From the IMG/VR virus record IMGVR_UViG_3300045988_059940, positions 1-64,000 of that record: a stretch of DNA of 64,000 nt; one strand, given 5' to 3'. The position numbers were made by a program, and so were the translations under genes. This DNA is from a virus. The notes under the pieces were generated by a model, which did no database searches, was not told the origin of the DNA, and saw nothing but the letters and a program-made list of their open reading frames with translations. Of the stretch, positions 44,489 through 61,629 are shown piece by piece (within the stretch, counting starts at the first letter, position 1; the number at the start of each line of letters is the position of its first letter).

Positions 44489-46785
44489 TTAAAGTGTAAA
44501 TGTCGGTATGTCGTCCTATTCTGTCACATCGTTGTCCCAGTAATTATTACTAAACAATGGCGTTTCAAATAGTTCGACTTGTTTGTTTTTATCTTTATGT
44601 GCTTGTGTTTTTATCTGATATAACTCTTCTCTATATATCATTACCATACACAAAGCAATTACTCTATCGACGTTTCTTATTCCGTCATTTTCAATCAGCT
44701 CCTCTAATAGAGGTTCGCTGTATATTCGTTCTAAGTTTAGTCGTCCTGGTTCATATTCATCCATTAACCATTCTAATATTAGACCTTCTCCATACGCTCG
44801 TATTGATTTGGTCATATGACAACCTTTTCTTCTTTGTACCTTAGAATCTTTAAATATCTCTGAGATTACTTTGTCTGGCTAATCAGCCAATAAGTAATCA
44901 CAGTGTTTATTGGTGAAATAAGGATAAATTCCTTTACGTTCATTTTCAAATAATAGTCTAGCATTATAGAACAACAATAACTTTCTTACGTTCTCATAAT
45001 ACTCTTCTGCTGTATCTGGTCTACCAGAATACTCAGCTACTATTACGTCATTCCAAGCTTCACCTGCTTGCACGCGTTTAAATATAAATGTAGAGCCTAA
45101 CGAATTAGTAAAGCTCTCATCGTGGTCATCAGTTTGTTATCGTACAGCTTTTTATCTGTACTTCTATATGTTTCCATATAGCCCAGCATACATTATTACT
45201 TTGATAGTATCGGGCACTCGTGGCAAGATTATATTTATTCACTTGCTATGCGTTACGGTGACCTATAACCTTTCGTAATTTATAGGTTTACCACGGTGTT
45301 TCCACATATATTGATTATATAAGGTGTCCTCCGTATTTGCCCGATTTTAGACCCGCTGACTTACGCGTACGGGTCGCACCCCCCTACATATAATCCATAA
45401 GGAGGGTCTTTAACTGGATATTCCCAGATTACAATAGAGCCATGAGGTTTATCATCTTTTTTTAAATGATATGTTGTAATATCACCAGACTTTTTCTCTG
45501 TTGCTACAACATTACCATTCTCAAACCTAAGGTCTACTATATGTTTCATATTCCTAAGCTTTTCGTTTGTTCTAATTCTGGTTAGTTGATTCATCAATAA
45601 CTTTCTAGGGAATATGTTTTTTCCAAGTTCTAATACAGCTTCTTGTGGTTTCAAAGGACGTTCTGATACAAATCTGTCAATAGAAGTCTAACTGGCACCA
45701 CCATCTTTAATAATGTTACGTTGTTTTATTAATTCTTCTATTGCTTTCTCTTTCATTGAGTTTCCATCTTTGTCCATATATATAGGGTTTCCATTTTCAT
45801 CAGAACCCTCCATATTAGACCAAGCTGGAACAAAGAACCCACATTTTTTATCGGTCTATCCGTCATCCCATATGTTTTCAAATCCTAATACATTAAATGC
45901 GTCTGGATTGTAGAATATGTTCTTCAAACCATCAAATGAGCCACCTTCTGTACCACCTGTTCCAAATAGACACAGAAGACCGAAAGCAACACCATCGTCA
46001 GTTTCCACAGCTGGTTGTTCAACACGCCAAGCTGTTTCTAGATTAGGAAACTTACCACCTTCTTCAAATAGTACTAATTTACCACGAGTACCACGAAGAC
46101 GTTCTGGGTCATTCTTCAATGTAATTCCAGTAATGCTTGATAAATAACCCTGTTCAGTCTATTTACCAAATTCATCGGTTACCTTAAAACCAGCAACACG
46201 TTCCATACGAGTACTTGTAAGACGCTGTTTAGACCAGTCTGTATGTTTATCCACAAAGTCCATTATCTACCAGGCTTTGGTTAATATACCATCACCGATT
46301 AAGAATTTTTGTTCTGATGCTACTGCGAAGTTTTTAGAGCCTGGTATCAATTCATAGTTGCGCACTAGCATTGATGCACCTTTAAAACTATATCCTCTCT
46401 GCCTACATTTTAATGTAGCCATATGTTTACCTTGCTCTTCCGCTTCTTCTATTGCATGATAGTAGTAGTAATCGTAATCCCAAAATCTAGGGAAACCAAA
46501 TATACGCTCACGTCTTGTACGTTTTGCACCATATCTGTCTGTATACTCTACTTCTTGCAGTTTCATAATTGGGCTATAATTCAAATAAAAGTAATGATAA
46601 CCAGTTATAGCATCTCCATCGGGAGCTACATACCCATTTATACATCTGTCAGTCTCTCTGTCCCAATATGAATTATAGTCAGTAGTACCTCTTGGTGCAA
46701 GAGTATAACAACCATGTTCCTAAAAAAATATTGCGGCTTCACGGAATTTATCTGAGTTTATCACTCTCTTATTAAAATCAACCAT
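44489..46785 (-). CDS. terL: Terminase large subunit, split: exon 1 46785..45369, exon 2 45129..44489 (685 aa after removal of 45130..45368)
   Basis: 1417+641 nt = 686 codons. ATG at 46783-46785, just after the upstream TAA; TAA at 44489-44491. Walker-A-like KCRQRGYSFKG, Walker-B LVLFEEGG, GTGGTEGG, and nuclease-domain GGCDPY|DHDES...VAEYSGRP...LLFENE. Seven in-frame TAG (46720, 46267, 46159, 45856, 45688, 44879, 44516). Exon 1 and exon 2 frames differ by exactly the 239 nt removed. Confidence 0.8.
45130..45368 (-). other. Group-I-like self-splicing intron candidate (239 nt, no ORF) inside terL
   Basis: The TerL frame hits TAA at 45361-45363, and the downstream frame only opens after TAA 45137-45139. 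Exon end GACCCGU (45375-45369) pairs with intron GCGGGUC (45356-45350), giving a terminal U.G at the 5' junction. The intron ends in G (45130). GNRA hairpin CUAUAUG-GAAA-CAUAUAG at 45164-45181. There is an 8-bp long-range pairing between 45338-45345 and 45209-45216. The segment is GC-richer and denser in stops than its flanks. Confidence 0.65.
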
Positions 46786-60705: not shown

Positions 60706-60731
60706 GTATTATTTTATATTAATTTATATAG

Positions 60732-60819
60732 ACGCCCCAGTAGGAGTCGAACCTACCCTGTCACCTTCAGAAGATACGCGGTTTTAGAGACCGCCAGTGC
60801 CACCGTACACCATAGGGCG
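60732..60819 (-). tRNA. Suppressor tRNA, anticodon CUA (reads UAG), class II-like with ~21-nt extra arm
   Basis: Minus-strand sequence: CGCCCUA UG GUG-UACGGUGG-CAC U G GCGGU CU-CUA-AA ACCGC [GUAUCUUCUGAAGGUGACAGG] GUAGG UUCGACU CCUAC UGGGGCG U. Features: 7-bp acceptor stem, 5-bp anticodon stem, 7-nt loop with U33 and A37, canonical T arm, 88 nt in total. CCA is not encoded. Confidence 0.8.
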
Positions 60820-61049: not shown

Positions 61050-61144
61050 ATATGTGCAGTTTTATAGATGCTGCACTCATCTTAATTATTTTTCCTATTA
61101 AATATGAAACAATTGATTTGTTATAATTTTAAACTTTTTAACAA

Positions 61145-61234
61145 TCCCTAGAATACGAGTCGAACGTACATCTTCAATAAACATTGGCATGCATATTTAT
61201 TGTTGTGCTAATTTACCAATTACACCACCTAGGG
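61145..61234 (-). tRNA. Atypical tRNA-like gene (90 nt); acceptor, D and T arms canonical, anticodon arm aberrant; anticodon unassignable
   Basis: CCCUAGG ... UCUAGGG acceptor stem (7 bp), D region with GG (GUGU-AAUUGGUAAAUUA-GCAC), and T arm GUACG-UUCGACU-CGUAU. Between them lies a 7-bp stem CAAUAAA/UUUAUUG closing a 14-nt loop UAUGCAUGCCAAUG, in place of a 5-bp stem with a 7-nt loop. Confidence 0.5.
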
Positions 61235-61281
61235 AGGGGGTAAGCCGTTGTTTAAGTCTACGGCTTAAAGACTTATATGTT

Positions 61282-61629
61282 TTAGTTGTTACATGATTGT
61301 GTACAACAGGCATCCGATTCTTTTGCTTTCTTACGCATTTGCATTCGTGCGTTAACAGTGTTTGTTATGTATTCGGCCATTTGATTTCCATTGGTAATGT
61401 CTATTACATCATCGTTGTGCGTAATAAGTATGATTGTACCACTTTTGAAGATTTTATGTTCAGTTACAAAGTCATCGTCATTACGAACGATATTAGTTAT
61501 GTCACTGTCTTCTTCTAGTTTATAGAGTTGACCAAGTGCCCCGCAATATATATCACCGCTTGCACTTCGCAAATATCCACTTTCTTTATCGTGATACTTC
61601 AAATAACCGTCTATTACTATATACTTCAT
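61282..61629 (-). CDS. Hypothetical protein, 115 aa
   Basis: Intact ATG..TAA ORF with no TAG. Its stop is 2 nt from the upstream gene and it is followed by the hairpin at 61242-61266. Confidence 0.6.
   Translation of the reverse strand: MKYIVIDGYLKYHDKESGYLRSASGDIYCGALGQLYKLEEDSDITNIVRNDDDFVTEHKIFKSGTIILITHNDDVIDITNGNQMAEYITNTVNARMQMRKKAKESDACCTQSCNN

Follow-up and report, generated by a model that had tools for sequence, protein, structure and literature searches.

In the present study we analysed a 64,000 nt stretch of viral DNA (IMG/VR record IMGVR_UViG_3300045988_059940, positions 1 to 64,000; referred to here as the window), and our comparative data make it highly probable that its gene encoding the large subunit of terminase (TerL) is interrupted by a real and functional group I intron of 239 nt, which is IA2-like and carries no open reading frame (ORF). 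By tblastn placement of its TerL, the window was assigned to the Crassvirales (Suoliviridae, Oafivirinae), i.e. to a TAG-recoded crAss-like phage. The original prediction, made by reading the sequence alone, was that a group I-like insert splits TerL, and both parts of this claim stood up: removal of the insert restores an ORF of 685 amino acids, and the insert itself displays a group I architecture with covariation in 44 sequences.

TerL is encoded on the minus strand, between 46785 and 44489. Six-frame translation revealed a long frame from the ATG at 46785, in which exon 1 is interrupted by TAG codons alone and ends as ...GGG GGG UGC GAC CCG U, from where the frame continues AC GCG UAA to give a protein terminating in ...YVGGCDPYA at the TAA at 45363-45361. 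The conserved continuation, DHDESFTNSLGSTFIFKRV...VAEYSGRP (DHDESFTNS...), is found 239 nt further on in a different frame, after a TAA at 45139-45137. Removal of 45130-45368 (239 nt; 239 mod 3 = 2) yields a single ORF of 2055 nt, or 685 amino acids, with the TAG codons read through and the true TerL stop at TAA 44491-44489; the frame offset and the two TAA codons at the insert are as originally described. The joined product was identified as the terminase large subunit (PHROG phrog_6681, E=3.8e-149) and by tblastn has 82-88% protein identity to the proteins of cr273_1, cr272_1, cr130_1, cr124_1 and one Bohxovirus. Joining 45369 to 45129 creates the sequence ...GGCDPY/DHDESFTNSLGSTFIFKRV (the slash marking the junction), which in alignment with intron-less genes exactly matches TerL of cr273_1, where the gene is uninterrupted, and the CDPY/DHDES junction is near-identical in three other Oafivirinae TerLs. 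Homologues are not split into two polypeptides at this point, as close relatives have one continuous gene. The insertion point falls between bases 1 and 2 of the Tyr codon (...CDP-Y-DHD...) in the TerL nuclease domain, and uncertainty in the boundaries is limited to a 1 nt slide (UA/C...GA/U), of which the U/A...G/A version fits the group I rules. The predicted spliced RNA junction is ...UGCGACCCGU/AUGACCACGAUG... (...GACCCGU/AUGACC...). Frame translations showed no in-frame start for exon 2 ahead of the conserved DHDES motif, so a functional TerL requires splicing. They also showed stops in all three frames of the insert, and no ORF and hence no homing endonuclease within its 239 nt, as had been claimed.

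By sequence, the insert falls into a large family of phage RNAs. By blastn it matches 183 records among 50,697 phage records, with E-values of 3e-32 to 5e-16 against independent phage loci. Relatives at the same TerL site were found in cr131_1 and cr7_1 (E=3e-32), and a further family copy lies within a split DNA helicase gene of cr118_1. Outside these phages, copies are present in Staphylococcus Sextaecvirus phages, both in a split terL and in the tape-measure gene, where the copy adjoins an HNH ORF, in the DNA polymerase region of a Leptolyngbya phage, adjoining a LAGLIDADG ORF, and in Clostridioides and Bacillus phages. Using a conserved 24 nt pattern, we retrieved at least 120 family loci from IMG/VR, and the 3' tail GAUAACA is also present in 127 of 130 occurrences of the pattern. 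In some phage contigs of IMG/VR the family is represented two or three times within approximately 12 kb (three in L114, at 1929, 6323 and 11573, and two in L074), which indicates heavy intron loads.

A secondary structure was drawn by hand from the family alignment and tested on 44 distinct sequences, covering 11 helices and 52 pairs. Standard pairs occupy 98.2% of the cells, compared with 74.1% on shuffling and 29-42% when the 3' partners were slid. Compensatory changes on both sides were seen in 38 of the 52 pairs, with support for every helix, and none of 500 shuffles matched the observed value on any covariation measure. None of the 67 columns invariant in the family is altered in the window copy, which is off the consensus at two points only, P4 having an A.A mismatch and P5 being longer; the minimum free energy z-score of the insert is -2.75. 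The helices follow in the order P3-P4-P5-P6/6a-P7-P7.1-P3'-P8-P7'-P9-P9.1, with an A-rich J1/3 leading into P3, no P2, J6/7 ahead of P7, and the P3/P7 pseudoknot written in explicitly (coordinates in Table 1). All of the pairings noted originally have a place in this fold: the GAAA-capped hairpin at 45164-45181 is P9, the GUACAG/CUGUAC hairpin is P9.1, the extended hairpin ACCUAUAA/UUAUAGGU is P6a, and the long-range pairing is P3, placed at 45343-45338 with 45216-45211. A downstream CUGGGC was also considered as the partner of UGCCCG, but fails in L008 and L006, whereas the upstream CGGGCA partner covaries. P7, which the original prediction had left unassigned, could now be located as GCAUA (45251-45247) paired with UAUGC (45190-45186), crossing P3. 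Its first pair is G-C in 44/44 sequences and matches in place the G-C of the Twort GACUA/UAGUC, a correspondence read from two sequences, as P7 is absent from our covariance model; the invariant pair is the putative guanosine-binding pair.

To examine the splice sites, we compared the 80 closest TerL relatives in IMG/VR, 75 of which were classifiable for both the intron and a neighbouring intein. Introns are present at exactly this site in 27 of the 80, are 223-239 nt in length and are all ORF-less. The rules proposed originally for the window, i.e. an exon-end U held in a U.G wobble, a 7 bp P1 and an intron-final G, hold in the window and across its same-site copies: with the window included, the exon-end U stands opposite the first guide G in 28/28 introns, 6-7 of the 7 P1 pairs are formed, and the final G (omega-G) is found in 28/28. 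Two copies display compensatory changes in P1, L139 with exon GACCCAU and guide GUGGGUC, and L204 with exon GAUCCGU and guide GCGGAUU, and neither exon change alters the encoded amino acid. These two copies are direct comparative evidence from sequence that the P1 exon/guide pairing is under selection. The candidate P10 guide strand is kept as GUCA, AUCA or GAUCA in the same-site copies, although it is weaker in some.

A covariance model (R1) was built from the family alignment with P7 omitted, since pseudoknots cannot be represented in such a model. R1 matches each of the three Twort orf142 introns (GenBank AF132670, annotated as 'contains group 1 introns') at full length and colinearly, with scores of 46.4 bits for I2 (E=1.3e-11), 33.6 bits for I3 (E=2.4e-8) and 14.1 bits for I1 (E=2.3e-3). 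In addition, it matches the 3' half of the T4-type td intron with E=1.9e-4 and the 5' half with E=0.1.

Several observations weigh against this reading of the insert. The Rfam group I model RF00028 gave no match, and nor did any other Rfam intron family, either over the whole window at the gathering threshold or in 44950-45550 at E<=10, nor did it match ten relatives even at permissive thresholds, yet as a control it recognized the Twort introns with 64-101 bits. The P7.1/P7.2 region is unlike that of Twort and td, consisting of one hairpin with a conserved 14 nt loop and the linker CA(A/C)GAG; the window copy has the A.A mismatch in P4; and the candidate P10 is just 4 bp with a 1 nt offset. 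The training alignment of R1 included the window copy, and its self-score of 196 bits is no independent evidence; the independence of the family evidence rests on the blastn E-values and on the Twort and td matches. The group I model search suggested originally was thus divided in its outcome, the negative with RF00028 formally counting against the assignment and the family model R1 matching Twort and td in its favour. However, the T4-type td intron is also missed by RF00028, and because this canonical intron is missed the negative is weak and is not evidence of absence. Judged by architecture and homology, the family is best placed in group I, outside the range of the curated RF00028, and the miss is likely to be due to the divergent P7 sequence and the P7.1/P7.2 region.

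We consider it unlikely that the insert is a group I-derived element whose autocatalysis has been lost, be it a dead insertion (leaving a pseudogene or a two-piece TerL) or an element that splices only with the help of a protein cofactor from phage or host. The lack of an RF00028 match and the P4 mismatch would fit such a loss, as would the fact that an ORF-less intron encodes no maturase. TerL is, however, essential, and both of its exons are intact, with 82-88% protein identity to relatives across the junction; all family-invariant nucleotides are retained; and P1 covaries with synonymous exon changes, as would be expected only under selection on the exon/guide pairing. In addition, exon 2 is not translatable alone from before the catalytic DHDES motif.

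Even less probable are explanations in which the insert is another type of intervening element. The sequence GUGCG at 45378-45374, just upstream, resembles the 5' end of a group II intron, but was rejected as a boundary because the conserved CDPY would be deleted, and the boundaries fixed by the homologues are A...G rather than GUGYG...AY. Moreover, at 239 nt the insert falls well below the size of a group II intron (>400 nt expected), and neither a domain V nor a match to RF00029 was found. Relatives do have inteins in this very region, but an intein is excluded here by the stops in all three frames. For a miniature inverted-repeat transposable element or insertion sequence fragment, no terminal inverted repeats or target duplication were seen by eye, no repeat search having been made, and against all of these elements stands the group I fold. 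That there is no intron at all, the gap being crossed by ribosomal bypassing or frameshifting or having arisen as an assembly artefact, is extremely improbable. Phage ribosomes can hop, as in T4 gene 60, and the frame arithmetic fits, but nothing else does: the gap measures 239 nt, compared with 50 nt in gene 60, and contains stops in every frame, a covarying ribozyme structure plays no part in bypassing, and the same insert recurs in independent assemblies (L137, cr131_1, cr7_1 and 25 further IMG/VR contigs). The covariation, the Twort matches and the same-site copies effectively refute bypassing and artefact alike.

For a functional group I intron, a splicing pathway can be proposed by analogy with T4 td and Twort. 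The pre-mRNA would fold into P1 and a P3-P9 core, and exogenous guanosine, bound by P7 at its invariant G-C pair, would attack after U45369, held by the P1 U.G wobble. The freed 3'-OH of exon 1 would then attack after omega-G 45130, with the short P10 aligning exon 2, and ligation of the exons would give the mRNA for the 685-amino acid TerL. The TAA at 45363-45361, which lies in the P1 loop three codons inside the intron, probably halts ribosomes ahead of the ribozyme core.

The three introns of Twort orf142 (I1-I3) belong to subgroup IA2, their self-splicing has been proven experimentally, and a crystal structure exists for the I2 ribozyme. The window intron resembles them in being small and ORF-less, in having no P2 and an A-rich J1/3 that runs straight into P3, and in its element order (P3-P4-P5-P6/6a-P7-...-P3'-P8-P7'-P9(GNRA)-P9.1 plus tail). 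Near-identity is seen over the segment ...CUGAAC-[P9 with GAAA loop]-AGAAG..., and both have a 5 bp P7 of the form G-x-y-U-A/U-A-y'-x'-C. They differ in the middle P7 pairs (GCAUA/UAUGC here, GACUA/UAGUC in Twort), in host phylum and in the gene interrupted, and the P7.1/P7.2 hairpin pair of Twort corresponds here to one hairpin, with the loop UGAAUAAAUAUAAU, plus CA(A/C)GAG. As regards the features of subgroup IA2, P9.1 is present, whereas one covarying P7.1-like hairpin and an unpaired conserved hexamer replace the two hairpins. The T4 td intron, also of subgroup IA2, shares with the window intron the J3/4-P4-P5-P4'-P6 and P8-J8/7-P7'-P9(GNRA)-P9.1 segments that align to R1; both interrupt an essential phage gene, and both are missed by RF00028. 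Their similarity is nevertheless weak (E=2e-4 and 0.1), and the td intron contains a 735 nt endonuclease ORF (I-TevI), P2 and P9.2.

Group I introns have been reported in Delta-group crAss-like phages (Suoliviridae), where they were detected via their endonuclease domains (Yutin et al. 2021, PMC7886860). The window derives from the same phage family, and shares the recoding of TAG in late genes and the invasion of core genes by self-splicing elements, but its intron is ORF-less and lies in TerL. Group I introns have also been reported in the terL of other phages, the Bastillevirinae, and heterogeneity within the IA2 subgroup is known (PMC11878797). The terL introns of the Staphylococcus Sextaecvirus phages SA2 and F1 occupy the same gene and belong to the same RNA family; the insertion sites and hosts of the Bastillevirinae and Sextaecvirus introns are different, and many contain endonuclease ORFs. 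Group I introns were thus already known both in Delta-group crAss-like phages and in terL, and the window intron adds another.

Table 1. Positions of the TerL exons and of the predicted intron elements in the window
Feature	Position	Strand	Remarks
TerL exon 1	45369..46785	-	ATG 46785; 472 codons plus first base of Tyr codon; five in-frame TAGs
TerL exon 2, nuclease domain	44489..45129	-	Two in-frame TAGs; stop TAA 44491-44489
Predicted ORF-less group I intron, IA2-like, 239 nt	45130..45368	-	ORF restoration, family homology, covariation
P1 5' strand GACCCGU, last 7 exon bases	45369..45375	-	U45369 is splice-site U of U.G wobble; 7/7 pairs
P1 3' strand, internal guide sequence GCGGGUC, intron nt 13-19	45350..45356	-	
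TAA closing exon 1 frame, P1 loop	45361..45363	-	Stop codon not recoded
Candidate P10 guide strand GUCA	45357..45360	-	Pairs with exon 2 UGAC 45128-45125
P3 5' strand CGGGCA	45338..45343	-	99.6% paired; compensatory change in 4/6 pairs
P3 3' strand UGCCCG	45211..45216	-	
J3/4 AAAU, P4 CGGAG/CACCG (one A.A mismatch in window copy), extended P5 hairpin	45294..45337	-	
P6 GG/CC, P6a ACCUAUAA/UUAUAGGU, tip capped C-GAAA-G	45257..45292	-	8/8 P6a pairs covary
P7 5' strand GCAUA	45247..45251	-	100% paired; CG/AU and GC/AU covariation
P7 3' strand UAUGC	45186..45190	-	Pseudoknot with P3
P7.1-like hairpin GCAAG/CUUGC, family-invariant loop UGAAUAAAUAUAAU, then linker CACGAG	45217..45246	-	5/5 pairs covary
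P8 UACU/AGUA and J8/7 AUAAUG	45191..45209	-	
P9 hairpin, 7 bp, GAAA (GNRA) tetraloop	45164..45181	-	Hairpin shared by Twort and td
P9.1 hairpin GUACAG/CUGUAC	45142..45161	-	
Conserved 3' tail GAUAACAAACUG, final base omega-G 45130	45130..45141	-	G in 28/28 same-site copies

Among the 75 classifiable relatives, 41 have neither element, seven an intein only, nine the intron only and 18 both, a co-occurrence above expectation, with an odds ratio of 11.7 (Fisher p=8e-6, phylogeny being ignored). The intein site lies between G and C of GG/CDPY, 10 nt upstream of the intron site and equivalent to 45378/45377 in the window, which contains the intron and no intein. In cr131_1 and cr7_1 the intein begins with Cys, carries LAGLIDADG-type motifs (LWLGDGF and GYLDTDGS) and ends HN/C; in L005 (cr131_1) it is located at approximately 1390-2440, and inteins are also present in L006 (cr7_1), L138 and L139. 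We considered whether cr131_1 and cr7_1 have an ORF-containing version of the intron and rejected this, as their extra 360 codons are the LAGLIDADG intein upstream and their introns are ORF-less.

Close relatives of the window differ in both elements. L137, with 96.7% nucleotide identity over 6.5 kb, has the intron; L138, which is 95-98% identical, has the intein and no intron; and L139, at about 91% identity, has both. Since the presence of the intron and of the intein varies among near-identical phages, both must have been gained or lost over a very short timescale, and the polymorphism of the intron, seen even inside one species-level cluster (L137 compared with L138), means that it is, or recently was, mobile. 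Lacking its own endonuclease, the intron probably relies on recombination or co-conversion for its movement, with the LAGLIDADG intein found 10 nt upstream in many relatives perhaps as the driver, and it is plausible, if speculative, that the ORF-less intron hitch-hikes on intein homing. A broader proposal, which we put forward tentatively and regard as rather doubtful, is that the intron represents a large uncurated IA-type sub-lineage, with a single P7.1 hairpin bearing the invariant UGAAUAAAUAUAAU loop, a CA(A/C)GAG linker and a GCRUA/UAYGC P7, which is invisible to RF00028 and extends across phages of Bacteroidota, Bacillota and cyanobacteria, and of which the ORF-less form in crAss TerL spreads by co-conversion with the LAGLIDADG intein 10 nt away as a 'collaborative homing' pair. 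TerL inteins in the Delta group have been described by Yutin et al. (PMC7886860). L138 has a second TerL insertion of approximately 1.1 kb further upstream (734-1827, equivalent to ~45941 in the window), which by analogy is presumably another intein. The gene is interrupted at three levels, by TAG recoding, at an intein hotspot and by a group I intron, and all of these come together within 10 nt of the part of the terminase nuclease that holds the catalytic Asp. Among near-identical phages, each of the four possible combinations of intein and intron is found segregating, which makes this a good natural system for the persistence and movement of an endonuclease-less intron.

The significance of these data is mostly a matter of annotation and methods, as ORF-less group I introns of this kind escape both endonuclease-domain screens and RF00028. 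This has left the main phylogenetic marker of the Crassvirales, TerL, in truncated or split form in public records. The RefSeq TerL coding sequences of cr131_1 (NC_055902.1, 19835-20677) and cr7_1 (NC_055895.1, 99347-100179) run through the intein and stop inside the intron, leaving the intron and the entire TerL exon 2 (about 640 nt) unannotated. For the Bohxovirus sp. 'endotrachealis' record PV686213.1 (locus L002), the standard code was applied despite TAG recoding, so that TerL and the genes beside it appear as numerous short 'hypothetical proteins'. The R1 family model could recover hundreds of similar introns from viromes.

R1 also gave a second match in the window, at 61114-61300 on the minus strand, which is weak (14.5 bits, E~0.05). 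This segment lies between the end of a 115-amino acid ORF and a tRNA-Met, contains a J8/7-P7'-like GAAGAUGUACGUUCGACU and a AUAACAAAUCA tail, and has a fold z-score of -1.3; no split gene is evident, and no relatives of the segment were found in the phage database. The match is probably due to chance or a decayed remnant.

The in-frame TAG codons of TerL are located at 46722, 46269, 46161, 45858 and 45690 in exon 1 and at 44881 and 44518 in exon 2, and ARAGORN identified a tRNA with a CUA anticodon at 60731-60819 on the minus strand. Given the TAG-broken TerL frame and this tRNA, the phage reads TAG as sense. The CUA tRNA is 89 nt in length with a long variable arm, i.e. of type II (Ser/Leu/Tyr-like) shape, and scores below the Rfam tRNA gathering score, with the neighbouring tRNA-Met scoring above it. 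At several of the TAG positions in TerL, relatives have an aligned Gln.

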